The notes under the pieces are model-generated. The model was not told the DNA's origin and searched no databases. It was given only the letters and a program-made list of their open reading frames with translations. From NCBI RefSeq assembly GCF_012295525.1, contig NZ_CP051167.1:5557299-5621298 (forward strand): a stretch of DNA of 64,000 nucleotides, in the 5' to 3' direction. Position numbers and translations under genes: made by a program. This document shows positions 39,591 through 61,400 of the stretch, one piece after another. Source of the stretch: Oxynema aestuarii AP17 (GTDB lineage: Bacteria; Cyanobacteriota; Cyanobacteriia; Cyanobacteriales; Laspinemataceae). Position 1 is the first letter of the stretch. Every line of letters begins with the position of its first letter.

Positions 39591-39805
39591 TGGGCAAAAA
39601 ATTAACCCTCCGGACTGAGCTTATCCCCTTGGTTGAATCCTTCGCCAGTGCTAAAGGGGACGACTCCCTTGGAGCGGCGATGAATCGGCTGATTTATCTG
39701 GGATTGAAAGCTGAAGGATTTATCCCTCATGCCACCCATACAAAAGGTGGCAATACTTCCCCCAACAATGACGACTTAGAAATACTCGGAGTCATTGACT
39801 TATGA
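39590..39805 (+). CDS. small putative ribbon-helix-helix DNA-binding protein (ParR-like adaptor candidate)
   Basis: 71 aa. KKLTLRTELIPLVESFASAKGDDSLGAAMNRLIYLGL fits a beta-strand, helix, turn, helix pattern. Overlaps the parM-like stop (TAATG). Position matches the parMR order. Confidence 0.35.
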   Translation: MGKKLTLRTELIPLVESFASAKGDDSLGAAMNRLIYLGLKAEGFIPHATHTKGGNTSPNNDDLEILGVIDL

Positions 39806-40089
39806 ACTACAAAATTACCACCCTTATTACCTGCATAGTCGGTTCAATGCTCACCATGATCCTCGTCCTCGGTGCGCTTGAACCCCAGGTCGATTCAGCC
39901 CGGATGATGACCATTGCCATCTTATGCGGCATAGGGTCAGCTATTGCAAACATAGTGTTTCAACGGCGGCGCTGTCCCCCAGCTTCCGACTCCCTCCAGA
40001 GCCTTCTGCGCGGAGGGCGACTTTCACCGGCGCAGCAATTCACCATCCTGGATGCGATCGCCATCTTGGACGAGCGAGAAAAGGCGTAA
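39802..40089 (+). CDS. small integral membrane protein
   Basis: Two hydrophobic helices (ITTLITCIVGSMLTMILVLGAL; MTIAILCGIGSAIANIVF). Overlapping start and stop. Confidence 0.4.
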   Translation: MNYKITTLITCIVGSMLTMILVLGALEPQVDSARMMTIAILCGIGSAIANIVFQRRRCPPASDSLQSLLRGGRLSPAQQFTILDAIAILDEREKA

Positions 40090-40197
40090 CAACCGGGAAA
40101 CCAACCACTGTAACCATTGAGATTCCGTGGGTTGGGTTTCAGATGTAACCAACAGATTTAACCAACCCCACCCCCTGAAAAATAGGAGATTAAGCCC

Positions 40198-42727: not shown

Positions 42728-43347
42728 TTAAAAATGTAGGCACGGCCATCATTGGCGCGGGTGCAATTTGGGTTCTTTGGAGTCCGCTCATTGCCCCAAT
42801 CGGGCGGGGGATGTTTACCCAGCGAATCAATCCCTCTCGCAATGCTTCCCCTGATAGTGTGGTGCAGTTTTTTAGTGCGGGGACTGCGAACATGATTGGT
42901 AAGGGTTTTGAGAACTATGATACCGAAAACCTCGGACGACGGTTTGACGAACCCAACCCTCAGATTCGCTTACCGGGTGATGATTTATGGCTCACAGACC
43001 CACGCCGTTATATCCCCTTTTTGCGCCCCAACCCCCAGCAACCGCAACAACAGCAGCGGAATTTATCGCCCCATAACCAGGTAGTCACCCCGAACGAAAA
43101 CTGCCCACCGGACCAGCAATGGATTGATGCCACGGAACCCGACAAAAACCCAGATCAACCGAACCGACTCCAGGCGATCGCCACCGAACCCAACAAAACC
43201 CCAACTCAACCGCACCTCCGTTGTCCCCTACGTTATCTGGACCGACTCCAGGCGATCGCCAACTTCCTCAACAAAACCCCCTATCAACCGGACCTGAGTT
43301 GTCCCCGGCGTCAGCCTCACCCACTCAATCCAAACCGGACATCTTGA
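42724..43347 (+). CDS. membrane protein with Pro/Gln-rich repetitive C-terminus
   Basis: N-terminal transmembrane helix (VGTAIIGAGAIWVLWSPLIAPI). Internal repeat PDQPNRLQAIATEPNKTPTQP / LDRLQAIANFLNKTPYQP. Confidence 0.4.
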   Translation: MIKNVGTAIIGAGAIWVLWSPLIAPIGRGMFTQRINPSRNASPDSVVQFFSAGTANMIGKGFENYDTENLGRRFDEPNPQIRLPGDDLWLTDPRRYIPFLRPNPQQPQQQQRNLSPHNQVVTPNENCPPDQQWIDATEPDKNPDQPNRLQAIATEPNKTPTQPHLRCPLRYLDRLQAIANFLNKTPYQPDLSCPRRQPHPLNPNRTS

Positions 43348-44129
43348 ATGAGGAGGAATATCATCAATGGTCCCGCCAGGTTGCGCCCGTCCTCAATACT
43401 TACCTCCAGCACCGAGGGATTCCAGTTATCGAAGGCAACCGCTTCCGGACTTATAAGCGCGGTCAATACCTCGTTTTGGAATATCGGGATGACTCCAGAA
43501 CACTGATGATTGCCCATAACAGTGACTCGGGTTCCTGGGAGATTCCGAACTGTTTCGCGGTTAAGCGGACCACTGCGGAGCACATTTTGTCACAGTTACT
43601 CCCGGCCATGCAGCGCACTATGAGGCTCAGTCATCCGAGTATCTCAGGCAAGTCTCCAACAGATCCGCCCACACCTCAACCCTCTCAGTCTCAAATCGCA
43701 ACACCGTCACCAACGCCCTCATCAACCCCAACCTCAACGCCAACACCATCACCCACCCCGTCCCCACCCTCTGTCCTGAATGAGCAGGAATATCAACAGT
43801 GGGTGAATACCGTGGCTCCATTCCTCAATACTTACCTGAAGCACCGGGGTGTGCGGATGTTCTCCGGCGATCGCTTCCGGACTTACAAGCGGGGTCAGTA
43901 CCTCGTTTTGGAATATCGGGATGGTTCGGGCACTCTGATTATTGGCCGACCCACTGGCAACGGGTCTTGGGAGACTCCCAAACAGTTTCCGGTCAAGGTC
44001 AAACGCGAGGACGCCAACTATATTGTGGAACGGTCTATCCCGCTGATGCAGGAAGATATCAGGCAACGTCAACAACGTTATAGGCCATCGAAACGCTCTC
44101 GTTCTAACCAACTGGATATCTCGGATTGA
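43221..44129 (+). CDS. protein with two tandem copies of a ~90-aa domain separated by a Pro/Ser/Thr linker
   Basis: EEEYHQWSRQVAPVLNTYLQHRGIPVIEGNRFRTYKRGQYLVLEYRDDSRTL... is repeated as EQEYQQWVNTVAPFLNTYLKHRGVRMFSGDRFRTYKRGQYLVLEYRDGSGTL.... The 5' end overlaps the upstream ORF by 127 nt, so the true start is uncertain. Confidence 0.5.
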   Translation: MSPTLSGPTPGDRQLPQQNPLSTGPELSPASASPTQSKPDILNEEEYHQWSRQVAPVLNTYLQHRGIPVIEGNRFRTYKRGQYLVLEYRDDSRTLMIAHNSDSGSWEIPNCFAVKRTTAEHILSQLLPAMQRTMRLSHPSISGKSPTDPPTPQPSQSQIATPSPTPSSTPTSTPTPSPTPSPPSVLNEQEYQQWVNTVAPFLNTYLKHRGVRMFSGDRFRTYKRGQYLVLEYRDGSGTLIIGRPTGNGSWETPKQFPVKVKREDANYIVERSIPLMQEDIRQRQQRYRPSKRSRSNQLDISD

Positions 44130-44224
44130 GGCGATCGCGGCATGGTGTTTTCGTACCCTTGAAGTCTCCTTGAGGCGATCGCACCCGGGTCATCCAAACC
44201 CAGCCACCGGCTTACTGAGTACCT

Positions 44225-44700
44225 GGTCTAGTTTTAGTCTACACTGCTGTCTACTATCATGCCCGGTAATTGTAAGCGCCCACCTCAAACCCCTAGGATA
44301 ATCCGGGTCCATCCCCTGTCTACAATTTTGTCTATTATAGGGAGCAAACCCGAGTGTAGTCCCCGTCTATAACCTTGTCTACTTCAGGGCTGTTCCCCGC
44401 CAAATTTTCCGCCTATAACCTTGCTAAGGGAGTCAATCCAAGTCTAGCCTCTGTCTATCCCCTGCCTAGACTACTATGGGTCACCGGGGTCAACACGGGT
44501 CTAACTGCTGTCTACAATCCCGTCTATCTCAGGGGGCCAACAAGGGTCTAGTTTTCGTCTACAATCCTGTCTATCCTAGCGGTCGAGATTGGTCTACCTC
44601 TTGTCTATCCTAGTGGGTGATATCGGTCTAGTTCTTGTCTACAACCCTGTCTAGTTTAGGGAGCCAACAACAGTCTAGTTTTCGTCTATATCTTTGTCTA
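44225..44700. repeat. iteron array A: ~10 units of 38-47 bp, each with three GTCTA(C/T/G) hexamers at ~11-12-bp spacing
   Basis: Example unit: gGTCTAgttttcGTCTACaatccTGTCTAtcctag. The units are unambiguous direct repeats. Immediately 3' of the RHH gene. Confidence 0.75.
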
Positions 44701-44708
44701 CAAATGCC

Positions 44709-45569
44709 CTAACCCTTTGGCTCAACGGGATAGTAGCGCTCTTTTTGATAGCTCCAGGCGATCTCTTCCGGGTCCTGTTGGCTGGTCCATTTGGCAAAGG
44801 CGTTCGTGCCTTTTTTCTTGCGGTTGGTGGTAATGCTCGACGGGCTGACTGACAACCGTTTTGCCAACTCCCGGCCACTGAGTCCTTGAGTGCGGAAATC
44901 TCCCGCCGCGTCTACTCCCTGCTTAGATTCCTGGGAACGGCTGAGATCGCCCCCGGTTGCTTCCTCCAAGCCCAATTCTCCAGAAGTCGCCTGAACCTCA
45001 CCCTCAACCGCATCATCACCCGAGTCTCCCGCCGCCTCTACAAAGCGCTCAGATTCTGGGGAAGCGTGGCGATCTCGAACGGTTACTTCCTCCAACTCCA
45101 ACTCTGCCGAAGTTGCCTGAATCTCTCCTTCAACTGGCGCATCACCCGAGTCTACCAGCGAGTCTACCTGCCCGTCTACATCAACCCGGGCCACCTCATC
45201 TACTGGTGCATCACCCGAGTCTCCCGGCGCGTCTAGCCCGTCTACCGGCGCGTCTACATTCTCATCTACATCAGAAGCAGACAGCCGTATTTCCAATGCT
45301 TTCAGGCGTTCCTCAAGGGTGCGAGTTACCCCCAGAATCGCCTGCTCAACCGCAGCGTCTACAAGGGATTGAACAGTCGCCGTCGTCTGAGGGGATGGCG
45401 GTTCTATTCCCAGGTACGCCTCAATCGCTTGGACAATAAATTCGCTGCGACTCGTATCCTGCCGTGCCTGATCAATCTGGGCCAACAGTTGGGGAGTGGT
45501 CCGGACATTCACCTGGGCGCGTCCCGATTTGGATGACTTCGCCTCGGCTTTTTTTGAGGGTCGGCTCAT
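44709..45569 (-). CDS. ribbon-helix-helix DNA-binding protein with acidic repeat region and basic C-terminal tail (candidate iteron-binding Rep/Par-type protein)
   Basis: N-terminal RAQVNVRTTPQLLAQIDQARQDTSRSEFIVQAIEAYL matches the CopG/ParG/omega RHH pattern. Central acidic repeats SGDAPVEGEIQATSAELELEEVT / SGDDAVEGEVQATSGELGLEEAT. C-terminus RKKKGTNAFAKWTSQQDPEEIAW. Confidence 0.6.
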   Translation of the reverse strand: MSRPSKKAEAKSSKSGRAQVNVRTTPQLLAQIDQARQDTSRSEFIVQAIEAYLGIEPPSPQTTATVQSLVDAAVEQAILGVTRTLEERLKALEIRLSASDVDENVDAPVDGLDAPGDSGDAPVDEVARVDVDGQVDSLVDSGDAPVEGEIQATSAELELEEVTVRDRHASPESERFVEAAGDSGDDAVEGEVQATSGELGLEEATGGDLSRSQESKQGVDAAGDFRTQGLSGRELAKRLSVSPSSITTNRKKKGTNAFAKWTSQQDPEEIAWSYQKERYYPVEPKG

Positions 45570-45590
45570 GTTTTTTCCTCTATTTTGAAT

Positions 45591-45835
45591 AGTCTACACT
45601 GAATCTACTATGAGTCTACGCTGAATCTATCATCAGTCTACAGTGAATCTACCCTCAGTCTACAATAAATCTATCATCAGTCTACAGTGAATCTACCCTC
45701 AGTCTACAATAAATCTATCATCAGTCTACAGTGAATCTACCCTCAGTCTACAGTGAATCTACCCTCAGTCTACAATAAATCTATCCTCAGTCTACACTGA
45801 ATCTACCCTCAGTCTACACTGAATCTACACCTAAT
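45591..45835. repeat. iteron array B: 11 contiguous 22-bp direct repeats (cAGTCTACagtGAATCTACcct) in the promoter region of the RHH gene
   Basis: Two alternating unit variants (cagtctacagtgaatctaccct / cagtctacaataaatctatcat). The GTCTAC core is shared with array A. Three inverted GTAGAC hexamers follow at 45925-45960. Confidence 0.8.
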
Positions 45836-46158
45836 CCGACATTGCTCCCCTAGAATTTTTCACTCCACTCTACTCCTCCGGCTGCAACCCCTAGTTTGGC
45901 TGTGGGGGGAAGCGGCACATCCCCTTCAAGTGTAGACAAACAAGTAGACTACTATTCAATCCTGTAGACGTTCGTTTTCTTCTTCCAACTCGGTGAGCCG
46001 TAACCGGAGTTCAGCCAGCGCCATCCCGATTTTCTCCTCCAATTCGTTGATGCGGTTGTTGAGCCGGTTCGACTCCCTTGCATCCAAATCCTCATCGCAA
46101 AGGGGCAAACGGGGTTTGAATAGCAACCATGCAGAAACTTACGCTAAGGCTAAAAGCC

Positions 46159-49100
46159 TTACATACAAGGGGTTTCACCCCATGTTTCTGGGAAATCATT
46201 GAGGTCACGTAAGGGACGCATCCCTCCATCAAGCAACTCCGAAGGCAAATTAAAGTGATAGCGACCCAGCATATTGATATGAGAATAGGCCAGAGGAGAT
46301 AGCCGAGCAATATCTTCTGCCTTGACCAGTGTTCCTTGAAGGCGTAGATGATTCAAGGCGGTATTCATGTAATAGGTATTCCATAAAACCAGCACATTAA
46401 CCACCAAACCTAAAGCTGATAGCTGCTCTTCCTGACCTTCTCGATAGCGTTGGCGTACCTCTCCTCGACGACCATAAAATATCGCTCTAGATAAACTATG
46501 ACGACCTTCTCCCCGATTTAATTGAGTAAGGATGCGACGGCGATAAGCCTCATCATCGACATAGTTCAACAAATACAAAGTCTTGGCAACTCGTCCTAAT
46601 TCCCCAATTGCCTTGGCTAAAGTAGAAGGCTTTTTTCCTAATTGCAAAGCTCGCATAATTTCTTGAGCGCTGACAGTTCCCAACTTCAATGAACCAGCTA
46701 CCCGGAGCAAATCATCCCAGTTCTGCTCAATTAAGTGTGTCTTGACCCACTGTCGTGCTAGTTTATCGAGAACTCCGTAATCAGCATTTGTATCAAGTCG
46801 CCAAAATCGAGCCTCCCCTACGTCTGCTAGACGAGGACTAAACTGATAACCTAACAACCAAAACAACCCAAACACCACATCGCTGTAACCAGAAGTATCT
46901 GTCATCAGTTCTTTAGGTTGTAGGCTAGTTTGTTGCTCTAATAATCCCACCAAAACAACCAGAGAATCCCGCAGCGTTCCTGGCACAACCAGACCATGAA
47001 AGCCCGTAAACTGATCGGAGGTAAAGTTATAGTAAGTAATGCCTCGTCCCTGACCAAAGTATTTACTGTTTGGCCCAGCGTTCAAAGTTCGTACAGGCAC
47101 CACAAAGCGCAAACCATCGGCTGAAGCCACTTCGCCACCTCCCCAATTTTGAGCGAGAGGAATTTGGGCCTGGGTATCAACCAGCCGCGCATTAGCTCGG
47201 ACAAGAGTTTCGGGGCGAATATAGTTTTGCTCTACCCAAGTGAGCCGAGAACGTGTTAAAGCCGGGAGATCTGGACGTACCAAGGGAGTCAATCCAATAT
47301 TGCAAGCTGAAGCAATTAACACAGCACAAATACTGGTGGATAAGTCTCTCACCCTGGCGAAACTTTCATTGATGTGGATGAACTCATCCATAAACCCAGT
47401 TTTGACTTGGATTTCCAGCAAGACTTCTGGTAAATCGACATGGGGAAGCAACGATTCAACTTGCTGTTTGAGGAGAAGGTAACTATCGGGTTCTTCCAAC
47501 TTATCCAGATTGCTGATAGTTAGAGTTTCACGCCCTTTGGTAACTTCAATTCTGACGGCAGCATTATTAGGTAAATTGTTGGCAGTCCGAGAGTAAGCTT
47601 CATCCAATTGTTGTCTAAGGACATTCAGTTCCTCGACAGGAGTTGGGTTAAGATTTAAAGCTCGACAGACGTGAGACCGAGCTGATTCCCAAGCACGACC
47701 CTGTAACAATTTAGCTTGAGGATTACTCCAACGCTCAGAAGGACTTACGAATAAGTCTCGACGACGAAGCCCTTCAACTAATTGCTCTAAGACACAAAAA
47801 GTATAGGCGCGACGGTCAATTCTACCATCAGAAAGAACGACCCACCGTCCCCAACTTTTGCTCACGACTTGAAGCGGTGCAGCCTTCATATCTGGCTTGG
47901 TTTGTCCCTCAATCGATTGGAGAAAACGCCAAGCGGCTAAGATAGGCTGACCCGCTTTGTTAGCCAAAAATTCAATCGTCAAGAGTAGGGTAGGAAGAAA
48001 ACACCGAGCCTGTCGCCAACGTCCCAACAATTCCTGATAATAATTATGGTCGGGAGGTCTTGCCAACTCTTCAACTTGAGTTACTGCCTTGGTCAATTGG
48101 TCTTTGGTTAGGAGCCTCCATACTTTTTCTCGCACCTTCTCATCATCGCAGTTAGGGTCAAGTAAAACTCGACCCACTTGGGAAAGTTGTAGAGCCGCTG
48201 CATCTAAATCTTTGAGCGTCCGGAGGCGTTCTTTCTTTCCCTCACGCGCTGAGCAGGAGAGTAAATCTTTGACGAGTAACTCTAACACATCAAGTGCATC
48301 ATCCGTAGCGATCGCTTCCATGACATAAGCGAAAGCAACCAGAGTGGCAAGGCGTCTTGAAGAGGGCATTCGTGCGATTGCCTGCGCTCTTACCGTTAAG
48401 GCAGTTCTGGATAAAGCTTTCAATTGAGTGGGTGGAATTTTAGCGACGGGAAGCTGCCTGATTCCTAGAGAACGAATGGTTACTAAGCGATTCAAAGCAT
48501 TTACTAGAGCTGAAGAACTGGTCCGGGTTGGCGAGCGCCGTAACTGCTCCAGAAGAGTGGGTCTCATTTTTTCATTGACGAAAAGTAAAGCTTCTAGTTG
48601 ATTGGTTTGCTCGGCATTAGGTAGTTTTGACAACAAAAGCCACAGACGCTTGGCGACCCGCTCACGCACACTGGAAATCAGCCGAACTAATACACTCACT
48701 CCCGGCAGAAGAATTTTGTTTTCAACCAATCGAGCTGTGGTTAGATCGAATAAAATACTTGGACTTTCGTCACTGACCCAAGCTCGTTCGTAAAGCCAAC
48801 GAACTAATCGCCAGTGAAAGGGTTGCTCGCTGAAATCTCGATAGGCGTAGTGCAGTTTAATGGCTTGTGCGTGTTCCCAATGAGTTGTGGGTCGTTCCAA
48901 ATAGCGGGGTAAACAGTTCTTATTGGTGATATCCAACTGGGCTGCCAGATCGGCAATGACAACTTGAGGGACATCAATAGGGTTGGTCAGGAACGTTCCT
49001 AGAAAGCGAACTGTACAAAGCTGTATCGCGAAGCCCAAGCGGTTATGGTCTCCACGGCGTTTGTTCACTAACTGTCGGGCTGTATCGTCTAAATGGAAAT

Positions 49101-49185
49101 AGCGAGCGAGCTGAACTGGCGTTGGGTCTCCCACATACCGTCCATAACTTTGTTGCTGTTCCTCCGTCAGAAATCGTATCGACAT
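46159..49185 (-). CDS. tnpA: Tn3-family DDE transposase
   Basis: 1008 aa. N-terminal DUF4158-type region (MSIRFLTEEQQQSYGRYVGDPTPVQLARYFHLDD). The C-terminal DDE core is typical of Tn3 TnpA. Confidence 0.95.
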   Translation of the reverse strand: MSIRFLTEEQQQSYGRYVGDPTPVQLARYFHLDDTARQLVNKRRGDHNRLGFAIQLCTVRFLGTFLTNPIDVPQVVIADLAAQLDITNKNCLPRYLERPTTHWEHAQAIKLHYAYRDFSEQPFHWRLVRWLYERAWVSDESPSILFDLTTARLVENKILLPGVSVLVRLISSVRERVAKRLWLLLSKLPNAEQTNQLEALLFVNEKMRPTLLEQLRRSPTRTSSSALVNALNRLVTIRSLGIRQLPVAKIPPTQLKALSRTALTVRAQAIARMPSSRRLATLVAFAYVMEAIATDDALDVLELLVKDLLSCSAREGKKERLRTLKDLDAAALQLSQVGRVLLDPNCDDEKVREKVWRLLTKDQLTKAVTQVEELARPPDHNYYQELLGRWRQARCFLPTLLLTIEFLANKAGQPILAAWRFLQSIEGQTKPDMKAAPLQVVSKSWGRWVVLSDGRIDRRAYTFCVLEQLVEGLRRRDLFVSPSERWSNPQAKLLQGRAWESARSHVCRALNLNPTPVEELNVLRQQLDEAYSRTANNLPNNAAVRIEVTKGRETLTISNLDKLEEPDSYLLLKQQVESLLPHVDLPEVLLEIQVKTGFMDEFIHINESFARVRDLSTSICAVLIASACNIGLTPLVRPDLPALTRSRLTWVEQNYIRPETLVRANARLVDTQAQIPLAQNWGGGEVASADGLRFVVPVRTLNAGPNSKYFGQGRGITYYNFTSDQFTGFHGLVVPGTLRDSLVVLVGLLEQQTSLQPKELMTDTSGYSDVVFGLFWLLGYQFSPRLADVGEARFWRLDTNADYGVLDKLARQWVKTHLIEQNWDDLLRVAGSLKLGTVSAQEIMRALQLGKKPSTLAKAIGELGRVAKTLYLLNYVDDEAYRRRILTQLNRGEGRHSLSRAIFYGRRGEVRQRYREGQEEQLSALGLVVNVLVLWNTYYMNTALNHLRLQGTLVKAEDIARLSPLAYSHINMLGRYHFNLPSELLDGGMRPLRDLNDFPETWGETPCM

Positions 49186-49287
49186 TCTGTGACTGGCTGT
49201 TTGTACCCGTAAGACTATAATCTATTTGGTACACTGAAAGGGAACGATAGCATTAGGGTTTTCACTCTTGTTTCACAGAGGGATTAA
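49186..49287. promoter_or_regulatory. putative res (resolution) site / divergent tnpA-tnpR promoter region
   Basis: 102-bp interval between divergent tnpA and tnpR. Contains the inverted motif tgtaccc...ggtaca (tgtacccgtaagactataatctatttggtaca). The position is canonical for Tn3-family res sites. Confidence 0.45.
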
Positions 49288-49935
49288 TTGGTACAAAAAG
49301 TTGCTATCTACTGTCGGGTTTCGACTTCTGACCAGTCCTGTTCTCGCCAAGAACGTGACTTGGTTGCTTATGCTGAATTAGCTGGCTATCAAGTGGTTGG
49401 GATTTGGAAAGAAACGGCTTCTGGGAGTAAGCATCGCCTATTACAAAGAGACCAGATCCTGAAGTTAGCTCAAGCTCGTGCCATTGATGCGGTGCTGGTC
49501 ACTGAACTGACTCGCTGGGGTCGCAGCACTTTAGATTTGATTCATACATTGCAGGATTTAGCTCATTGGCGAGTCTCGTTGATTGCTCAAACTGGAATTG
49601 AGTTTAGTTTAGACACGCCTCAAGGTAAACTGATTGCCAATGTTATGGCTACTCTGGCTGAGTTTGAGCGCGATTTAGTTCGAGAGCGGGTGCGTTCAGG
49701 TTTGGCTGCGGCTAAGGCACGTGGAGTTAAGTTGGGTAGACAGCCTGGGCAACGGGTGAAAGCTGACCGTTTAGAGAACAAGGTTTTGCTTCTGGTTGAG
49801 CAAGGTCACTCCTATCGGGCGATCGCCAGACAGCTTCATCTGAGTAAGACTACAGTTAATGACATTGTGAAGCGACATAGGCAAAAAACCGCTCCATCTT
49901 TGACTGGCATAAGCACAGAAGATTCTGAAAGCTAG
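49288..49935 (+). CDS. tnpR: serine recombinase (Tn3-family resolvase)
   Basis: VAIYCRVSTSDQS catalytic Ser motif and C-terminal HTH (GHSYRAIARQLHLSKTTVNDIV). 215 aa. Probable TTG start. Confidence 0.9.
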   Translation: MVQKVAIYCRVSTSDQSCSRQERDLVAYAELAGYQVVGIWKETASGSKHRLLQRDQILKLAQARAIDAVLVTELTRWGRSTLDLIHTLQDLAHWRVSLIAQTGIEFSLDTPQGKLIANVMATLAEFERDLVRERVRSGLAAAKARGVKLGRQPGQRVKADRLENKVLLLVEQGHSYRAIARQLHLSKTTVNDIVKRHRQKTAPSLTGISTEDSES

Positions 49936-50264
49936 AAGTATTACCCAGTAAGGATTTCAGCCTTAGCGTAAGTTTCTGTACGATTGCTACTCAAACGCCC
50001 AAACCCTGAGCAAGGCACTGGCGAATAAAGATGGAAATCTGCTCCGTGGCAGTGGTCCCCTCATCCTGGCAAAGGGCCACAAAAGATTGCCACTCCTCCG
50101 GATCCATTCGGAGTGAAATCGGTTTTCGGGTCATAACTTTTCGTTTCCCACGTCAATCCAGTATTGCCAATACAAGCGTATTACAAAAAAAGGGAATTGC
50201 CGATACAGGGCCTTGGGGGACTGGGGGCCTTTGAGGTGGGTTCTACTAGATTTAAGGTAAACTG

Positions 50265-50291
50265 GTGTAAATAAGGGACCCTTATTTACAC
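50265..50291. promoter_or_regulatory. perfect 13-bp inverted repeat with 1-nt spacer (gtgtaaataaggg a cccttatttacac) 22 bp upstream of the truncated serine recombinase gene
   Basis: Perfect palindrome, followed by the RBS-like aggaaaggtagg and the ATG at 50313. Candidate recombinase binding or crossover site, or an operator. Confidence 0.45.
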
Positions 50292-50312
50292 ACAAGAGGA
50301 AAGGTAGGGGCC

Positions 50313-51032
50313 ATGACGAAAGGTTTTGATAACAGTACAGTAATCTATATTCGGGTATCCACCGATGAGCAAGCGAAAGAAGGGGTCTCTATCCCGGCCC
50401 AGGTAGAAAAACTGACGGCCTACTGTAAACAAGCGGGTCTCAGGGTAGTCTCCACGATTATTGACGATGGAGTCAGTGCGGGGAAGTTTCTGAGCACTCG
50501 TCCTGGGGGTAGCCAGTTGGTTGAGTTGGTCCGGTCGCGCCAAGTCAAAAATATTGTGGCGGTCAAGCTCGACCGTCTGTTTCGGAGTGCCGCCGATGCC
50601 CTCACCAGCGTTGACAATTGGGATAAGCTGGGGGCATCGCTCCACCTCTTAGACTTCAATGGGATGAGCTTGGATACGTCCAGCCCGATGGGGAGGATGA
50701 TGTTGACGATGATCGCGGGCTTCGCGGAACTCGAAAGAAATCTCTGTAAACAACGGACTAAAGACGCTATCCAACATAAGAAAGCGAGTAAGCAGAAGTA
50801 TTGCCGGAGTGTTTACGGGTATCAAACTTTAGAAGATGGAACAATGGTTCCAGACGCATCTGAGCAAGAGGCGATCTGCATAATCAAGATGATGCGATCA
50901 TCGGGTGCAAGTCTTCGAGCTATCTGTTCTAAGCTCACCGAACTCGGTTACAAAACCAAGCGTGGCGGGGTTCAATGGTATGCCGCTACTATTAAGGGAA
51001 TCCTAGAAAATGATATCCACCAACTAGCTTAA
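50313..51032 (+). pseudogene. large serine recombinase, truncated after ~239 aa
   Basis: Resolvase catalytic domain (VIYIRVSTDEQ). The start of the recombinase domain ends at ...GVQWYAATIKGILEN and then terminates (DIHQLA*). Zinc-ribbon and coiled-coil domains are missing. Confidence 0.65.
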
Positions 51033-51298
51033 AACATGAGCAATTTAGAAAAGGACATCATAGAAGCCTTAAGGGGTAAGGACGGCATCTTCCCTACTAG
51101 AATACGCGATTACATACGCACTAAGCATTTCTTAAACTTCGGAGATGGGCCAAACGTCGCACTCTTAATGTCAAAAAAGCTCAGGGTCTATATTGGCGAG
51201 CAATCAGCAATAGAAACTGGGTATTTGCGACCAAAGGGGAGCAGCCAAAAAAGCTAGTTTTACACACAGAGTTTGCGACCAGTAGTAACAAACATCTG

Positions 51299-51604
51299 TT
51301 GGTAAAAGGCGATAGAAGCCCCTATGAGGGCGACTTAGTTTATTGGAGTAGAAGGTTAGGCAGACATCCTGAATTACCTAACAGACAAGCGATACTTTTA
51401 AAACAACAACAAGGTAAGTGCGCTTGGTGGGGACTACACTTTCTTTCAGGAAATGTAATGGAGGTTGACCATAAAATCCCACTTTCTCAAGGAGAAAAAG
51501 ACGAGTGGGTTAATCGTCAGCTATTACATCGACATTGCCACGATGAAAAGACTGCTGCTGACGGCAGTCAGAAGTCCGTTATTGACAAAGGGATTGCACA
51601 TTGA
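51299..51604 (+). pseudogene. group II intron-encoded protein fragment (DNA-binding/HNH endonuclease domain only)
   Basis: KCAWWGLHFLSGNVMEVDHKIPLSQGEKDEWVNRQLLHRHCHDEKT is the characteristic En-domain motif (C..C...EVDHI.P...G...N...LH..CH). A degenerate domain-V-like sequence follows (agccgtgtgcggtgaaaatcgc...ccggtttc). The reverse-transcriptase domains are absent, so this is a 5'-truncated copy. Confidence 0.6.
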
Positions 51605-51822
51605 GTAGCCGTGTGCGGTGAAAATCGCTCTTCCCGGTTTCGGAAGAAAGGGGTGGAATGGTAACATTCCCCTCGACTCTATCTCTCGGCTTTACCCCTC
51701 TATCTCTCGGCTTTACCCCGGATTCAGCCGGTGTTGGTGAATGGGTGATTTCACGCTAACTCAAAATCCAGCCAAACGTAGACTCATTTAATCCACCAAT
51801 TTTCTAGTATTCACTAACATAA

Positions 51823-52245
51823 AATCTTACTATAGATGATAATCAAGTTCAAGGAACAATCACGGGAATTACATTTACCAATCCCGAGGATGGCTACACA
51901 ATTGCCCAACTCACCTCGCCTGAGCATGGCACAATCACGGTCATCTTTAATCTAACTGTCAAGAAAGGGCAAAAGCTGATTGTAACGGGATTATGGAAGA
52001 ATCATCCTCGCTATGGCAAACAATTTCAAGCTCAAACTTGGAAGGAAGAAAAGCCCACCACTTTGCTTGGAATTGAGCGCTACTTAGGCGATGGACAAAT
52101 TCCCGGGATTGGTCCAGGGTTGGCTAAAAAGATTGTTGCTTATTTTGAAGAGCAAACGCTTTCAGTGATTGAGAACCAGGTCGAGCGGTTGATTGAAGTG
52201 CCGGGTATTGGCAAGAAGAAAGCCGATCAAATTCAGGCTGTTTGA
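51823..52245 (+). pseudogene. RecD2-type SF1 helicase, N-terminal ~140 aa only
   Basis: GTITGITFTNPEDGYTIAQL...LIVTGLWKNHPRYGKQFQAQTW...GIERYLGDGQIPGIGPGLAKKIVAYFEEQTLSVIENQVERLIEVPGIGKKKADQI. This is the N-terminal OB and helix-hairpin-helix region of RecD2. There is no ATG, and it stops after the HhH motifs with no helicase domains. Confidence 0.65.
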
Positions 52246-52363: not shown

Positions 52364-52762
52364 TTAACTTTCCAGATTCTCTCTGTTCTGAGTAAAACAT
52401 TTGGAAAGTAAGTCTGCTACCCACGATCCCACATTTGTTGTACCATTCCAGTCAGGAACCTTTTCGTCGTCGAGTTCAACTTTGAGGCTATCTTCTAGGA
52501 AAAGAACAATTTCAAGAAGGTCCCAGTCACAAGGCTGAAGGCGAGATAACTCCCCAAATTTATCATTTGGATATATTTTTTCAGGGGGAACTTGAAACAT
52601 ATCTCCTAACTTTGAGCGATAGTCTTTGACAACTTTTTTCAATTTAGTGCCTGAAAAGCCAAGTTCAGACAAAAAGTCTTCATCGGTCATTCGCGGACGC
52701 TGTAAAAATTCCTCTAACTTTTTTTTAGAGTTGAACCAGAAAAGCATAAACTCTCTTTTCAC
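52364..52762 (-). CDS. putative immunity protein for the orphan Rhs C-terminal toxin
   Basis: 132-aa acidic cytoplasmic protein. AT-rich. Immediately 3' of the orphan Rhs C-terminal cassette. Assignment by position only. Confidence 0.4.
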   Translation of the reverse strand: MKREFMLFWFNSKKKLEEFLQRPRMTDEDFLSELGFSGTKLKKVVKDYRSKLGDMFQVPPEKIYPNDKFGELSRLQPCDWDLLEIVLFLEDSLKVELDDEKVPDWNGTTNVGSWVADLLSKCFTQNRENLES

Positions 52763-52775
52763 CTGCTCATTGTTT

Positions 52776-55532
52776 TTAGTTGTTTGTCAAGCCATACTGG
52801 TGGTCGTAGGTTTTTCTTATTCTCGCTCCTGACGCATAACCAATAGTGAATCCAAAAAGAAAACCTAATGCGATAAAAGTAGTTGATTGACCGTATTTCA
52901 ACAAAACTTTCGCTTGCGTTGCGAAGCCTTGACCAACAACTCTAGCTATTTCATGTCTTCTCCATATCGCTCCACGTATCAGCGCATCATCCACAATGGT
53001 AATGGCAGTGGTGAGGGCAGTACCTAATGTAACTTCATAGTCGGGTTCTAAAAGCCCTCCAGTAAAGCCAAGTGCAAAGCCTCCGATTAGTGCTGCCGCA
53101 GTTGTAGAATGTCTTGTGAGTGCCTTTCTCCATAATTCCTGAAAACCCCGAGTCAGAATTGGTCCTAGACCTGCTGGAGTTAGATAGAAGGCTCCGCCAA
53201 GCATAGCTCCGGCAGCGGCTCCTCCTACGGCTCCTACCAGTGCAAACTTTAAAGTCTCTTTGCTAAAGACTTCACCTGACTTATAGGCCCCGTAATAACC
53301 GCCTCCTACTGCACCAGCGAGACTGCCAATTATCGTACTGCCTGCTAACACCTCTGTCAAAGCAAAGAAACCACTAGGATCAACATAATTAACCGGATTC
53401 GCATTCCCATACAAATACTTATGCAGAGTAATCGGCTCATTAAGACGTCCCTCATAAGTATCCCGGCGAGTAAACCGGCCAATCCCCGCATCATAATAGC
53501 GTTGTCGCAGATAATATTGCTCTAAACTCTCATCATACTGCTCCCCTGCAAACAAAAACTCATTTTCAATACTACCAGAAGATGCCACCAGATTCCCAAA
53601 CGCATCGTAACTGTAAGCATTTGTAACCTCCCCACCTTCATCCGTTAGCAACCTCGTACTACCCAGTCCATCCACTAAGTAGAACGACTCACTCCCATCC
53701 CTTTCCTGAGAAATCAAATCCAGGCCATGCAGATAGCTGACAGCAAGCGTATCATCCACATACTCTGACAACACCTCAGCATAGGGACGATTCTTATCCA
53801 CGAGGTACTCCGTTGTCACCCCATTCACCGTCGAACTGACCCGAATATTGTCAGTATCGTAGGAGTAACTGATGACATCCCCGGTTGATGTTGTCGCCCC
53901 AACCAAACGATTCTCCTTATCCCAGGAGTAAGTCGCATTCCCGATGACATTATTACTTCCATCCTTCTCAATACGTTCTATCGTATTGCCATTGTCGTCA
54001 TAACGATACTCGTAGACACGAACTACATTCCCATCTAGAGTCAACTCTTTCCGAACCAGGCGATCGCTCTCATCGTAAACATAAGTCGTCGTCCCCTCAA
54101 CCGAATCAATCCGACTCAAGCGATTTCCCACCGCATCATAGGTGTACTCTATCGTGCGGTTCCCATTTACGGGGTCAGCGATCGCCTCTTTAGTTAGACG
54201 ATACAAATCATCATATTCATACTCTACTTTCCGGCCATCACGTTCTTCAACAACGCGGCGATGTCCTACTGGGTCAAGAGTATAATCGTAACTAGCGATG
54301 AGCGTTCCATCCTTGACATAACTCACCGATTCCAACCGACTCAATTCATCGTAAGTCCGAGTTTCCACCACTCCATTCGGTAACTCAGTCCGGATTAAAT
54401 TGCCAACTTCATCATAGGAATAACTCGTGACTCCAGCATCATCCGTCACCGTTTTCAGACGATTTTGCTCCTCAAAAGCGTATTCTATCGTTCCCGTCGG
54501 TGTCGTTACAGAAGTCCGATTTCCAGCAGAATCGTATCCATATTCAATCGAAGCACCACTGGTTAAATAAGGCCCATCCGGGTCAGTCCGAGAAAGCAAA
54601 CGACCGAGTTCATCGTAGGAGTAACTCGTCACCCCGCGACTATCTGTTATGGTTTCTAGTTGTCCGGTTGGGGTATAGGTGAAACTGGCAATTGGCGTTT
54701 CTCCCACCCGTTTTTCAATGAGACGATTTTGAGCGTCATAGTTATAAGTAATGGTGTCCCCATTGAAGTCGGTAACGCTAAAAGTGTTGCCTACTGCGTC
54801 ATATTCTGTTGTAGAACGTTGAGTGTCAGGTAACTCGACGGCAGTGCGACGACCCAGGTTATCATACTCGTAATTAGTCCGATGGTTGTTGGCATCCTCC
54901 TGCCAAATTAATCGACCCGATTCATCGTAACCATACTCAGTCCGGATTTCTTCGCCGTTGAGGAACTGCACCACATCCGTCAAGCGACCAAGTGCATCGT
55001 ATTCATACTCGGTTTTATTCTCTGCTTGGTCGATCGCAGCAACCCGACGACCGAGTGCATCGTAAATTGTTTCTGCCTTAGTTCCATCAGCAAAATGCGT
55101 TGCAACTAAGCGTCCCAGATTATCGTAAACGAACCGAGTCGCATGACCTTGAGCATCAATTTCTTTGACTCGCTGTCCTGCATTATTATACTCAGACTTG
55201 CTACGCGGATTATCTGATAAATCGTCTGGTGTATCATCCGGATAAATCGTCTCTATCAAACGACCTGCATCATCGTAACGATACTCAGTCCGATTACCGC
55301 GTTGGTCTATATTCGCCTTAACTTGGCCGTTTTTATTGTACTCCGTAACCGAACGAGGATTGTCAGTTAAATAGGTAGGTAAGTCATCCGGATAAACAAC
55401 TAGACTCCAATCAATCGTTGCCGCAGTTTTTCCAGGTGCAACCGCGTCGATAAACTGTTGTAAAGTATCGGTTTTATCAAGATAAATTGTCTCGGTTAAC
55501 TGTCCCGCCGCATCGTATTTATAATGAATCAC
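52776..55532 (-). CDS. Rhs/YD-repeat protein, N-terminally truncated orphan copy with distinct glycine-zipper-rich C-terminal tip
   Basis: Starts inside the YD repeats (MIHYKYDAAGQL). Many YDxxGR(L/V) repeats. Conserved core end RYYDAGIGRFTRRDTY...PVNYVDPSG. A ~200-aa C-terminal tip rich in GxxxG/AxxxA and hydrophobic segments (SLAGAVGGGYYGAY, GAVGGAAAGAMLGGAF). Confidence 0.85.
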   Translation of the reverse strand: MIHYKYDAAGQLTETIYLDKTDTLQQFIDAVAPGKTAATIDWSLVVYPDDLPTYLTDNPRSVTEYNKNGQVKANIDQRGNRTEYRYDDAGRLIETIYPDDTPDDLSDNPRSKSEYNNAGQRVKEIDAQGHATRFVYDNLGRLVATHFADGTKAETIYDALGRRVAAIDQAENKTEYEYDALGRLTDVVQFLNGEEIRTEYGYDESGRLIWQEDANNHRTNYEYDNLGRRTAVELPDTQRSTTEYDAVGNTFSVTDFNGDTITYNYDAQNRLIEKRVGETPIASFTYTPTGQLETITDSRGVTSYSYDELGRLLSRTDPDGPYLTSGASIEYGYDSAGNRTSVTTPTGTIEYAFEEQNRLKTVTDDAGVTSYSYDEVGNLIRTELPNGVVETRTYDELSRLESVSYVKDGTLIASYDYTLDPVGHRRVVEERDGRKVEYEYDDLYRLTKEAIADPVNGNRTIEYTYDAVGNRLSRIDSVEGTTTYVYDESDRLVRKELTLDGNVVRVYEYRYDDNGNTIERIEKDGSNNVIGNATYSWDKENRLVGATTSTGDVISYSYDTDNIRVSSTVNGVTTEYLVDKNRPYAEVLSEYVDDTLAVSYLHGLDLISQERDGSESFYLVDGLGSTRLLTDEGGEVTNAYSYDAFGNLVASSGSIENEFLFAGEQYDESLEQYYLRQRYYDAGIGRFTRRDTYEGRLNEPITLHKYLYGNANPVNYVDPSGFFALTEVLAGSTIIGSLAGAVGGGYYGAYKSGEVFSKETLKFALVGAVGGAAAGAMLGGAFYLTPAGLGPILTRGFQELWRKALTRHSTTAAALIGGFALGFTGGLLEPDYEVTLGTALTTAITIVDDALIRGAIWRRHEIARVVGQGFATQAKVLLKYGQSTTFIALGFLFGFTIGYASGARIRKTYDHQYGLTNN

Positions 55533-55690: not shown

Positions 55691-56830
55691 TTAAAATGGA
55701 ATCCTTGCCTCAAGTTCTGGAAACTTTAAAATCAGTTTTGTTAATGCTTTAGCTGCTGCATCTTTTACCTCAATATCGCTATCGCTTAAAGCTTCAATCA
55801 GAGGTTCTACTGCTCTTGAATCTTTGATTTCACCTAATGCCCATGCTGCCTTCTTCCTAATCTCTTTTAAAGCCCACGCTTTTATATGTTTAATTTCGAT
55901 GTCAGTCGCTCTATGACTTGTGGTGGTAAGTTCAGCTATTCGCTCGTTTTTTAACCGACAAAAATCACTTTCTGGATTTAAAATTTTAATTAGATCGGGG
56001 AGAGCTTGTGGATCGCCTAACTCGCCCAAAATTTCAATTGCCCTTGTTATAAACATCATAATTATTGATAGATCGTTGTTTTGTTGGCTTGATTGCTGTA
56101 TGGCGTTGCTTAAAATTTTTACGGTTTCTAAACTTTTGAATTCTACAAATTCGTCTGAAAATAATTCTAATATCTCCCAAGTTATTGGCTGAAATTTTTT
56201 AAGATTTTTAACGGCTAATTCTCCTAACTTGGAATTATAGTTTCGCCAGATTTGACGGACTCGTTCGGGATAAGAAGCAATATAAGAACGCTCGTAGGCT
56301 TCAGCATCGTGATAGTAAGCGCCTGTTTCATAGCACTCTGCCATTGTTAGCATCATACTTGTTAAACTAGCATATTTTTTTATTGTTTCAGGCCATACTT
56401 CAAAATCTAAAAAAATTACAGGATAATGAAACTCCTTGTTTATGCGACTCATTGTAATTACACCTTGTTGTGGACCTTGAGGAGGGTAAAAAATAGAAAA
56501 ATAGTTTAATTTGTAACCACTTTCAGCTTTTGAGTTTGCAAGACAGCCATAGTATAAAATTTGACCGATTTGTAATACTTCTTGCAAAGGCTTAAAAGTC
56601 CAGTTTTCAAAAATCCAAGCTGTTTCTTTACACAAGTCTCCTTTTACTGCACCATTTCTCCATTGGTAGAGTTCATAGAGTTCCGGAGGTACTTTAACGG
56701 GTAAATTTTTAACTAGCTCGTCTATTTCATTTTTTGACAATCCGGGCTGTAAATAATCCACCAACCAGGGTTTATATTGTTCTATCCAGCTTAATATTCG
56801 GTTTAAGGCATCGGTCAGTTCTGTACTCAT
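55691..56830 (-). CDS. SMI1/KNR4 (SUKH-1) family immunity protein with C-terminal HEAT-like repeats
   Basis: The N-terminus (LPVKVPPELYELYQWRNGAV) is the SUKH hallmark. The C-terminus has HEAT/PBS-lyase-like repeats (EPLIEALSDSDIEVKDAAAKALTKL). Very AT-rich gene directly 3' of the main Rhs toxin gene. Confidence 0.7.
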   Translation of the reverse strand: MSTELTDALNRILSWIEQYKPWLVDYLQPGLSKNEIDELVKNLPVKVPPELYELYQWRNGAVKGDLCKETAWIFENWTFKPLQEVLQIGQILYYGCLANSKAESGYKLNYFSIFYPPQGPQQGVITMSRINKEFHYPVIFLDFEVWPETIKKYASLTSMMLTMAECYETGAYYHDAEAYERSYIASYPERVRQIWRNYNSKLGELAVKNLKKFQPITWEILELFSDEFVEFKSLETVKILSNAIQQSSQQNNDLSIIMMFITRAIEILGELGDPQALPDLIKILNPESDFCRLKNERIAELTTTSHRATDIEIKHIKAWALKEIRKKAAWALGEIKDSRAVEPLIEALSDSDIEVKDAAAKALTKLILKFPELEARIPF

Positions 56831-58422: not shown

Positions 58423-61400
58423 TCAGTACAAGTCGTCATAGGTGTACTCAATTACTCGACCGTTATTTTCCTCCACCTTTGTCCGCTGTCCTGCTGCGTT
58501 TAAGGTATATCGGTAACTAAAAAGTGTCACTTCTTGACCCGTACTGGGTTCGACCTTTAAATTTTTCAAGAAGACTAGACGATTTAATTCGTCGTACTCG
58601 CGAAGTTCAATCGTGCCATTAGGGAATTCCGTTCGGGTGAGGTTGCCAGCTTTGTCATAAGCGTATTGCGTCACCCCTAAGTCAGGAGTGGTAACGGTTT
58701 CAAGTTGATTGTACCTGTCGTAAGTATAATATGTCGTACCAGAGGAAGTTGTTACTGAGGTAATATTGCCAGCCCCATCATAAGTGTACTCTATCTTACG
58801 CCCATCCGATTCAGTGCGCTCGATAAGTCGATCGCGCTCGTCGTACTTATAAGTGGTTGTCCGAGTCATTCCTGCCTCGATTTCCGTTACTGTGTGGCGC
58901 AATCCAGTAGGTGTGTAGGTGTATTCAAGGGACCTGCCATCGGGGAAACGTTCAGCAGTTAGATGGTTAAGCGAATCGTATTCGTAGGAAACGCTATCTT
59001 GGTTGAAATCCTTTGCACTCAGAAGGTTTCCTACAGCATCGTAGGTAGTTTGAGAGTATTGGAATTCGGGCAACACTGTTCCCACTCGACGTCCCAATTC
59101 ATCGTATTCGTAAGTGGTAACATCGCCGTTAGCATTTTTGATGCTGGTTAAGTTGCCACTGAAATCGTAGCCGTACTCAGTTCGTTGTTTCAGAGCATCT
59201 ACCACAGCTACGAGTCGTCCTTGAGGATCGTATTCAAACTCTGTTTTCTTGCCAACCTGGTCAGTTATCGAGGTGACGCGCCCTAAGTTGTCGTAAGTTG
59301 TTGTGGTGTAGGTATTATCGGGAAAGTGTGTTTCGCTCAAGCGACCCAACTCGTCATAGACAAAGCGAGTCGTATTTCCCATTTGGTCAGTCTCGCTAAT
59401 TTGATTGCCAAACTCATCGTAAGTTATTGTTTTGCGACGGCAACCGCAACTGCTGCGAGATTCAATTACGCGACCTAACGTATCGTATTCGTACTCATTT
59501 CGATTACCTCGTTCGTCAATCTCAGCTACGACCCAACCGAGTTCGTTGTATTCAGTTTTGGTTCTGGGGTTATCTGCTAAGTCATCTGGGGTATTGTCTG
59601 GATGGATGACTTCCACTAAGCGATCGAGCAAGTCATAAACAAAATAGGTAGTACGACCTGCTTGGTCTGTGAAAGAATGTTTGCGTCCCACCGCATCATA
59701 AGTAGTGACAGTGCGACTGCCATCGGCATAGTGAGTTTCAATTGGACGACCGACGCGATCGTAAACAAACTTGGTCGTGTGGTTCCGAGCGTTTGTTTCG
59801 CTTAACCGATTTCCCACTGAATCGTAGGTGTATTTAGTTTCATTGTTGAGAGCATCGCGCATAAGAGTCCGACGACCTGTTTTATCGTCCTCGTACTCGG
59901 TACGATACCCCCGCTCGTCAATTTTAGCTTTAATTTGACCAGCTTGGCTGTATTCTGTTTTAGTTCTAGGGTTGTCGGAAAGATTGTTAGGTGTATCATC
60001 TGGGTAAATAGTTTCTATTAGTCGATTTAGAGCGTCGTAGACGAAATGCGTCATTTGTCCTTGTTGGTCAAGGACAGCCACTTTTCGGCCTGCCTTATCG
60101 TAAACAAACCGCTCTAATGTTCCGTCAGGATATAAGGTTTCTTCAAGATGGCCTTTCTCGTTATAACGGTATTCGGTACGACGATTTTTTGTACCTTCTT
60201 CAACCAGAGCGGTTAGGTTGCCCAATTGGTCATATTCGTGGCGGATGACATGACCCGATGAGTCAGTTTTTGTCAAGACATTCCCTTTGCTATCGTATGT
60301 CCATTTGGTGACCAGTGTCTTTTTACCTTCAGGGGTGGTAACAGTAACGGTTTCAGTAAGTTGGTTGCCATTGTTGTCATAAGTGTAAGTCGTTTCATTC
60401 CCCAAAACATCAATTTGACGAGTGACATTGCCAAAAGAATCGTATTCAAATTGGGTGGTATTACCGTCGGCATCGGTGAGAGAAGTGACATTACCAAACT
60501 CATCGGTAGTTTGCTTGATAACTTTCCCTTGTGCGTTCGTGGTGCTGAGGAGGTTTCTTCTACTGTCGTAGGTGTAGGTAATGGTGTTCCCTAGAGGGTC
60601 AGTTTTAGTTAAGACTTGCCCCAAACTATTGTAAGTGTATCGGGCTACGTTACCAAGAGGATCGGTTATGGCGAGCAAGTTGCCATTACTGTCATAGTCA
60701 TATTTGATAGTATTGCCCTCTGGGTCAGTTTCACTTAGCAAGTTATTGTCTTTATCATAAGACTGCTTGCTAATTCCTCCTACTGCATTCACTTTTTGAA
60801 CTATATTCCCCCGCTCATCATACACATAAGTCGTCGGGTTCCCAAACACATCCAACACCGTTTGAGTCGAATTATCCGGGTCATAAACCAACTCAACCGC
60901 TTCGCCATTCACATCCAGCATCCGCTTCAATCGACCCGACTCATCATACTCGGTCCGTACCCCAGTTCGTCCCAACGGGTCAATGATTTCTTCTAAGTAA
61001 TGTTCTCGTTCCTCATGATACTCAAACCTTGTGGTATTCTCCTCGCGATCCGTAACCCCAACTAAATCCCCATTCTCATCATATTCATACTGAATCTTAT
61101 TCCCCTCCGGGTCAACTGCCGCCACAATCCGACCCGACGCATTGCGCTCAAACGTCACCGACTTCCCAGTAGAACTGAAAATCCCCTCATCCGAATAAGT
61201 CAGCGTATTGCCATTCGTATCCGTCACCGTCAATAAATCGCCAGTTGTCCCATCAATCACATACTCAATACCCTCCTTCGTTCTCAGCGTATAACTCCCG
61301 CCAAAGAACGAATTTGCTGGATTGTAAGGCGACCCACTCGGATGATAGTATTGACCCGTCTCCTGATTGTAAAGCAACTGAGTTTTTTGAGCACTCAACG

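Follow-up and report, generated by a model that had tools for sequence, protein, structure and literature searches.

A short serine recombinase gene and three inherited gene stubs at the edge of a plasmid-like backbone in Oxynema aestuarii AP17

The cyanobacterium Oxynema aestuarii AP17 carries, on contig NZ_CP051167.1, a stretch of DNA in which a gene for a serine recombinase is followed by pieces of a small gene, of a group II intron and of recD2, a helicase gene. This stretch (positions 50313-52245) was analyzed within a window of 64,000 nucleotides (nt; positions 5,557,299 to 5,621,298 of the forward strand of the contig), and all coordinates given below refer to this window unless another replicon is named. 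A first-pass annotation, made from the letters alone, had read the stretch as a large serine recombinase gene broken by a 5'-truncated homing intron and followed by the beginning of recD2. Its description of the sequence is largely right, but the story of a truncated recombinase and a truncated homing intron errs in its central point: what lies here is ordinary plasmid wreckage, one working gene with three inherited stubs, and no new system. A literature search on serine recombinases, group II introns and cyanobacterial plasmids found nothing specific.

The features of the stretch, all on the plus strand, are the following (aa, amino acids):

50313-51032, plus: small serine recombinase, 239 aa, intact; Pfam Resolvase and a partial Recombinase domain
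51036-51130, plus: remnant of a small gene, its first ~31 codons, recognized by similarity to a gene of Laspinema D1
51131-51604, plus: maturase/reverse transcriptase pseudogene, C-terminal ~157 residues (DNA-binding and HNH), recognized by identity to a full-length intron (L011, see below)
51604-51682, plus: intron RNA domains V and VI (Rfam RF00029), with the canonical 3' splice site after 51682
51683-51698, plus: 3' exon of the intron, 16 nt (CTCTCGGCTTTACCCC), common to all seven copies found
51699-51719, plus: second copy of a 21-nt tandem duplication, consisting of 5 nt of the intron end and the 16-nt exon
51720-51748, plus: 3' flank of type B, 29 nt, also present in Laspinema olomoucense D3b and Oscillatoria sp. 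HE19RPO
51749-52245, plus: 5' fragment of recD2, with ~83 nt of upstream DNA and codons ~1-140 (OB fold and helix-hairpin-helix)

Results

The recombinase ends where its family ends

The product of the first gene has an N-terminal catalytic domain of the Resolvase type (Pfam Resolvase, E 4.7e-37) with its serine nucleophile; R14, V15 and S16 are invariant, and the other catalytic columns are conserved. The Recombinase domain (PF07508) is matched at positions 6-53 of 102 alone, and the Pfam scan of this protein gave no zinc-ribbon match. The first-pass annotation took it for a large serine recombinase that stops right after the W...ILEN motif of its recombinase domain; the stop was correctly placed, but it is the natural end of a protein family and not a truncation. 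A search of a protein collection brought up 234 homologs, from cyanobacteria, Methylobacterium, Desulfocucumis, Eremiobacteraeota and many metagenomes, and nearly all of the best 120 of these 234 are 221-250 aa long, with a coverage of 95-100% and an identity of 44-98%; a look-up of the exact sequence gave no record of an identical protein. When 18 diverse members were aligned, every protein was seen to stop 3-15 residues past the motif ILxNDLH, and N233 is nearly invariant, so that the tail NDIHQLA is a family property too. Because the homologs share both this length and this C-terminal end, the recombinase is not truncated; by these comparisons it is a full-length member of an unnamed, widespread family of ~235 aa that resembles the large serine recombinases. 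Members of the short family are annotated as "recombinase family protein" or as "Pin-like".

Two relatives free of the intron, Laspinema D1 (L002) and Laspinema A4 (L009), have an equal 239-aa recombinase gene, and the ratio of nonsynonymous to synonymous substitution rates (dN/dS) against four relatives is 0.10-0.19, which denotes purifying selection; the value against A4 was dropped because an indel shifts the naive codon alignment. A structure model obtained with AlphaFold on the family alignment has a mean predicted local distance difference test score (pLDDT) of 87.7. Over the C-terminal 80 residues the block means are 81-96, with values above 89 save for the last few residues, and this part forms a compact domain of a beta-hairpin and three helices. 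The best fold matches are the N-terminal parts of serine integrases (template modelling score 0.60-0.62 over ~245 columns), and the profile matches likewise cover the first ~230 positions alone, namely 2-234 of the 465 of XisF and 9-229 of the 542 of CcrB; the resemblance to the TP901-1 catalytic domain has an E-value of 3.5e-18.

With the large serine recombinases, such as the TP901-1, Bxb1 and PhiC31 integrases, XisF and CcrB, the protein thus shares the catalytic domain, the long helix E and the first subdomain of the recombinase domain. A large serine recombinase was understood here as a protein of ~400-700 aa with a complete recombinase domain and a zinc-ribbon with coiled coil; in contrast, this protein, like the whole short family, lacks the remainder of the recombinase domain as well as the zinc-ribbon and coiled coil, and its length is 239 aa compared with 440-700 aa in the named large serine recombinases. 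The recombinase is the sole gene of the stretch that still looks functional, and its role is probably in the resolution of plasmid multimers or in integration.

Several observations concern the surroundings of this gene. A palindrome with 13-bp arms (GTGTAAATAAGGG A CCCTTATTTACAC) is located at 50265-50291, 22 nt ahead of the start codon; plasmid pOSCIL6304.02 of Oscillatoria acuminata PCC 6304 has kept it in part, and it is a candidate for the binding or crossover site of the recombinase. Three metagenome contigs with close relatives of the recombinase (L006, L007 and L008) all end at the equivalent of 51038, just past the stop codon, which suggests that the downstream sequence differs among co-occurring plasmids and breaks the assemblies. 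Finally, positions 50761-51130, which take in the small-gene stub and the 3' part of the recombinase gene before it, are identical to pOSCIL6304.02 at 369 of 370 positions, compared with 89-96% in the flanks; such a tract indicates a recent gene conversion or recombination between plasmids.

The small gene and the intron remnant

The intact counterpart of the small-gene stub is a 72-aa gene that directly follows the recombinase gene in Laspinema D1 (L002 4725-4943). The stub shows 59% aa identity to it over 34 residues, and then the similarity ends. An open reading frame (ORF) of 73 aa that was listed at 51036-51257 is a chimera, in which the stub runs into intron DNA in the wrong frame; the tail of this ORF has stop codons in pOSCIL6304.02 and in contig L005.

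The intron DNA begins at 51131, 99 nt past the stop codon of the recombinase gene and inside the small gene; hence it was not the recombinase gene that received the intron, contrary to the first-pass annotation. The same annotation had proposed 51036-51760 for alignment with group II introns, but the intron-derived DNA does not start until 51131, and its canonical 3' end is at 51682. A scan of genomes with a 20-mer laid over the intron/exon junction gave four more copies, and L011 (Oscillatoria sp. MAG S11.Bin022, JAABSJ010000080.1, ~610-3176) turned out to be a full-length intron, with the 5' end GTGCG at ~610 and an intact protein of 596 aa that comprises reverse transcriptase, maturase and HNH domains. 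Positions 51131-51698 are 93.8% identical at the nt level to the last 568 nt of L011 (2625-3192). The remnant proper, 51131-51682, corresponds to the last 552 nt, about one fifth of the intron. Neither the 5' GUGYG end nor the ribozyme domains I-IV are present: the homology starts at 2625 of ~3176 in L011, and nothing intron-like lies upstream. The reverse transcriptase and maturase domains are missing too, with residues ~440-596 of 596 left and no TIGR04416 match.

The protein tail has an HNH domain (Pfam HNH, E 9.8e-10), and its frame extends upstream to LKLRRWAKRR, with an in-frame stop codon immediately before it. It is 50-59% identical at the aa level to the C-terminal ~160 residues of ltrA products encoded on cyanobacterial plasmids. 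Together with the identity to the interior of L011, this bears out the proposal that the HNH ORF represents the end of a protein encoded by a group II intron, and the ORF at 51299-51604 was found to derive from the intron and not from another HNH protein with its own start. In the window the CxxC zinc-ligand motif has become CxxW (CAWC to CAWW), with loss of a ligand Cys; L012 and L013 have an in-frame stop in the tail, and dN/dS against the other remnant copies is ~0.6-2.4. The character states of the intron tail are mixed among the copies.

The RNA part has decayed as well, in agreement with the first-pass annotation, which had noted a degenerate hairpin like domain V. The match to RF00029 at 51604-51682 reaches 26 bits (E 0.027), below the gathering score of 40, whereas L011 scores 45.8 bits and intact relatives 58-63 bits. 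Compared with L011, domain V has three clustered substitutions (GCACTGCACGG to GCTCTTCCCGG) in the 3' strand and bulge and in the lower helix, and the low score is explained by their position in the bulge and lower helix. The bulged A of domain VI can be read 7 nt from the end. An extended domain VI, with a true 3' end farther downstream, was considered and rejected as the default, given that the introns of the relatives end canonically (...ctctaac and ...gtttaac at the splice site) and that the branch-point geometry fits 51682. By these comparisons the segment 51131-51682 descends from a bona fide group II intron, and it lacks the 5' end, the domains I-IV and the reverse transcriptase and maturase of a functional mobile element.

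The 5' junction at 51131 is nucleotide-identical in the window, pOSCIL6304.02, L005 and L013; therefore, it arose once and was inherited with the backbone. The 5' exon of L011 (...TTTTGCCGTTA; ...TTGTCCTATTTTGCCGTTA) was found neither in the window nor in any of the loci that bear a remnant. A possible microhomology, TTCGNAGAT, or TTCG(G/T)AGAT, is present at the 5' joint. The closest parallel to the whole arrangement is pOSCIL6304.02 (NC_019694.1, 38682-40401), which has the same 239-aa recombinase, small-gene stub, intron remnant, 5' junction, domain V mutations and 16-nt 3' exon; it differs in that it has one copy of the 21-mer, that its right flank contains pentapeptide-repeat and nuclease genes instead of the recD2 stub and the RHS genes, and that the Tn3-family insertion found upstream in the window is absent. 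L011 shares with the window the 3' exon 16-mer in addition to the 93.8% identity; in contrast, it has domains I-IV, an intact protein and a domain V/VI score above the Rfam threshold, and it does not lie beside a recombinase gene.

Past the intron a common exon is followed by four flanks

The seven copies share 16 nt past the splice site, with one single-nucleotide polymorphism in L005, and then continue into four unrelated flanks, distributed as follows:

Type A: pOSCIL6304.02 and L011
Type B: L012, L013 and the window
Type C: L005
Type D: L014, a piece of 174+16 nt in a chromosomal contig of 123 kb

The remnants with flanks A, B and C have one common 5' junction, and all the remnants share the domain V mutations; therefore, the flank changes are later rearrangements and not the product of independent homing. 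These same two facts led to the rejection of separate retrohoming events as an origin of the four flanks.

In the window the exon is part of a perfect tandem duplication of 21 nt (51677-51697 and 51698-51718 or, equivalently, 51678-51698 and 51699-51719), whose 16-mer core occurs twice in the window, with 0.07 occurrences expected by chance. The first-pass annotation had reported a 20-bp direct repeat at ~51668-51715; this repeat is real, but it is 21 nt long and lies about 10 nt from the position given. The second 21-mer replaces 30 nt of flank B (GGGAGGGACGGCAGCAGCGGGAGTGGCGGT), and the next 29 nt, up to 51748, are again flank B.

A second copy of the 16-, 17- or 20-mer was searched for in both orientations, allowing up to 3-4 mismatches, in the window, pOSCIL6304.02, L005 and L013; none was found, the matches with 3 mismatches being at chance level, which argues against an inversion or a paired-site system. 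Metagenome scans with the intron-less target site (TTGCCGTTACTCTCGGCTTTAC) and with the junction 20-mer gave no match, and the 16-mer is absent from the intron-less plasmids of the family.

The recD2 stub

The frame that starts at 51823 or 51832 and runs to 52245 matches OB_YrrC (PF23139, E 2.2e-19) and HHH_5 (E 2.9e-09), and it is cut inside the HHH_RecD2 domain, of which positions 16-60 of 92 are matched. The NCBIfam model for RecD2, TIGR01448, is matched at positions 1-130 of 713 with a score of 127, the cut-off being 500. The resemblance to this SF1B helicase, also known as YrrC, consists of the OB fold and the helix-hairpin-helix of the N-terminus. Eight full-length RecD2 proteins (718-749 aa) match the window at 51838-52242 alone, with their residues ~4-154 and 42-47% identity; the stub thus represents residues ~1-140 of a helicase of ~740 aa, from which ~600 residues are missing, and the SF1B motor domains of RecD2 (Walker A/B, 1A/2A) were not found anywhere in the window. 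In this frame there is no in-frame ATG, GTG or TTG before 52063. The first-pass annotation had described a RecD2 N-terminus without start codon or helicase domains, with the rest of the gene outside the window, and it was right on each of these points. Typical RecD2 proteins begin with M, 4-8 residues and xGxIxRIxF, a pattern that fits (M)DDNQVQGTITGITF. Translation of the original gene therefore probably began at 51832, where an ATG would have become ATA, or else at the ATG of 51836, which is now out of frame.

A word-index search with the stub gave just two short matches, and an exhaustive search 7322. Among the 150 of these that were listed, nearly all align at or near the N-terminus of the matched protein, and the lengths have a peak at 700-799 aa (43 of the 150) and are otherwise spread evenly over 100-600 aa. 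The 17 shortest listed matches end at scattered RecD2 positions and so do not form a discrete short family; the stub is accordingly a 5' gene fragment and not a complete small helix-hairpin-helix protein. The best relatives, which include recD-like helicase genes common on cyanobacterial plasmids, are ~50-53% identical, and the stub is plausibly the remnant of a plasmid-borne recD2 paralog, not of a split chromosomal gene. At the 3' cut it is opposed to the 3' end of an ORF of 132 aa, beyond which comes an orphan RHS fragment of 918 aa, and the turnover of RHS cassettes is the likely cause of the cut.

The stretch lies between a plasmid-like backbone and RHS cassettes

Long blocks of the window are collinear with pOSCIL6304.02 (36310-46108 and 50001-51698). 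The match is 91.7% in 37083-43131, ~77% in 44683-46108 and 93.3-93.6% in 50001-51698. Plasmid-type features, namely a ParM-like gene, a relaxase fragment and iterons, are found within these blocks. The iteron-like array (45591-45876) has ~12-13 copies of a 22-nt unit with an 11-nt sub-periodicity, of the type ...CAGTCTACAGTGAATCTACCCT..., and is adjoined by an ORF of 286 aa (44709-45569, minus strand) that gave no Pfam match; the two have the look of plasmid replication iterons beside their Rep gene, an arrangement that is also conserved in related plasmids.

The two collinear blocks are separated by a transposon, and the second is followed by genes of the RHS type:

46111-49999: Tn3-family transposon, with 52-nt inverted repeats starting with GGGG, a DDE_Tnp_Tn3 transposase of 1008 aa and a resolvase of 215 aa
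52364-52762, minus: ORF of 132 aa in the position of an immunity gene, without family match
52776-55532, minus: orphan RHS-repeat toxin fragment, 918 aa (Pfam RHS_repeat)
55691-56830, minus: SUKH-1/HEAT immunity-like protein, 379 aa
56845-58395, minus: piece of 516 aa with a NucA/NucB DNase tip
58423-62355, minus: RHS core, 1310 aa

The transposon is bounded by a 5-bp target duplication, CAAAC (46106-46110 and 50000-50004), and splits a 94-aa gene located upstream of the recombinase gene, which is whole in pOSCIL6304.02 and has a weak Pfam match to RepB-RCR_reg, a plasmid replication regulator. Removal in silico of the transposon and one CAAAC restores an ORF nearly identical to the pOSCIL6304.02 protein. 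The stretch 50313-52245 therefore begins just to the right of a recent transposon insertion, within a plasmid backbone. On the other side, the RHS array extends to ~62355, and 52364-55532 is its distal end, to the right of the recD2 stub; in related plasmids other RHS/immunity cassettes occupy the same place. The first-pass annotation had seen an island boundary here, and a boundary it is, at which the collinearity with pOSCIL6304.02 ends and the RHS cassettes vary. A tRNA scan gave no tRNA gene, so the region is not a tRNA-linked island; the same scan rejected a T-arm-like string at 46066-46080 as a tRNA.

The MOBP-type relaxase of the related plasmids seems to be represented by its C-terminal part alone (43129-44132), which contains internal repeats and matches L002 326-1144 at 96.6%. 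Neither the ORF at 42724-43347 nor that at 43221-44129 gave a Pfam match, and the relaxase gene may have been truncated or rearranged in this replicon.

Discussion

We conclude, with high though not complete confidence, that the stretch marks the passage from conserved backbone to variable cargo in a plasmid like pOSCIL6304.02, of the Oscillatoria/Laspinema group, and not a working system. The order of events would have been as follows. A full-length intron would have inserted downstream of the small gene, and one old illegitimate deletion, from the small gene into the intron and possibly at the TTCGNAGAT microhomology, would then have taken what remained of the small gene together with the 5' exon and ~2 kb of the intron. 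With selection relaxed, the remnant then decayed by mutation of domain V and loss of the HNH zinc ligand. A local duplication of 21 nt arose after the 16-nt 3' exon, leaving 29 nt of the older flank behind it, and the recD2 paralog would have been destroyed as the adjoining RHS toxin/immunity cassettes were exchanged. Recombination among the related plasmids, which is evidently frequent judging from the sequence mosaics, would keep reshuffling the backbone/cargo edge.

Some points weigh against this reconstruction. Its plasmid nature is read from the synteny with pOSCIL6304.02, and an integrated plasmid could also account for it; the choice between deletion and abortive retrohoming at the 5' junction is drawn from comparison; and the metagenome scans gave no intron-less allele of the target site. 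In addition, no stop codon interrupts the 140 codons of the recD2 stub, which lacks close relatives (~53% identity at best), and simple decay does not explain four flanks that start 16-17 nt past the intron.

It could be argued that a large serine recombinase was interrupted by a 5'-truncated homing intron and that later deletions took the 3' part of its gene. The best sequence and fold matches are indeed to the N-terminal ~240 residues of large serine recombinases, and half of the Pfam Recombinase domain is present; however, homologs from many groups share the length of ~235 aa and the NDLH tail, the intron-less Laspinema D1 and A4 carry the same 239-aa gene, this gene is under purifying selection (0.10-0.19), and the intron homology starts at 51131, 99 nt past the stop and inside another gene, so that we give this explanation hardly any credence. 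An abortive, 5'-truncated retrohoming into the 72-aa small gene, with no later deletion, would fit the exact 3' end of the intron, which is kept as in a truncated cDNA, and its sense orientation inside a gene. Nevertheless, it seems quite unlikely to us, given that the sequences to its left and right contain neither the 5' exon motif of L011 nor the missing part of the small gene, that a single junction was inherited by four replicons, and that a full-length copy exists at the very type A flank of the pOSCIL6304.02 remnant. It is because L011 and this remnant share the 3' flank, and because the 5' exon is absent at the junction, that a full-length insertion followed by deletion is favoured over the 5'-truncated retrohoming of the first-pass annotation. 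As for the HNH ORF of 101 aa (51299-51604, with a TTG start), a domesticated free-standing nuclease is suggested by its 101 open codons, its intact H-N-H core, the HNH protein annotated in pOSCIL6304.02 and a gene call in L005. Set against these are the 93.8% DNA identity to the interior of the gene for the 596-aa intron protein, the zinc-binding Cys lost in the window, the in-frame stops in L012 and L013, a dN/dS of ~0.6-2.4 among the remnants and gene calls that vary by genome (48, 125 or 101 aa), which make such a nuclease highly improbable.

A further proposal is compatible with the backbone/cargo edge that we prefer: the point 16-17 nt past the intron could be a site of specific breakage or crossover (a nick site, an alternative 3' splice site travelling with the intron or a recombinase site) at which cargo would be exchanged time and again, with the 21-nt duplication as a repair scar. 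In its favour, the seven copies share the 16-mer and then diverge into four unrelated flanks, the flank changes are later than the common 5' junction and domain V mutations, and in the window the duplication stops at 0-2 nt from this point, where it has taken the place of 30 nt. However, no second site was found in either orientation in the window, pOSCIL6304.02, L005 and L013; the 16-mer is absent from the intron-less plasmids, so it is not a recombinase site of the backbone; the introns of the relatives end at the canonical position; and the sample is small, seven copies with four types of flank. We consider the proposal unlikely, with some small chance of being correct. The more definite claim that this point is a recurrent, site-specific breakpoint at which cargo (RHS arrays, pentapeptide genes, the recD2 stub) is swapped is likewise improbable. 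Possible causes would be an intron variant with a short 3' extension, or a nick or crossover site brought by the intron target, the 21-nt duplication being a repair scar.

The gene first taken for a broken large serine recombinase encodes a complete protein of a large, uncharacterised family of short recombinases, whose members resemble the front part of the large ones; the family may merit study for its own sake, as a pared-down form of the integrases employed in genome engineering. The fixed breakpoint past the intron stump is a small puzzle; it and the short recombinase family are the sole points that might repay further work. The locus also illustrates that dead fragments of mobile elements can persist as fixed landmarks of a plasmid backbone. 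Dai and Zimmerly reportedly found, about 2002, that a large share of the group II intron copies in bacteria are truncated, and the remnant described here resembles such fragmented introns in being a 3' piece, with a decayed ribozyme core and a protein tail, in mobile DNA; unlike them, it is fixed in a plasmid backbone over several species-level genomes.

Among the plasmids with related introns, pCRI9333.04 of Crinalium epipsammum (L004) has two domain V/VI matches, at 1811-1889 and 3623-3699, 1.8 kb apart. The first of them directly precedes the ltrA start of the second intron, and the pair may represent a nested or tandem arrangement of introns.

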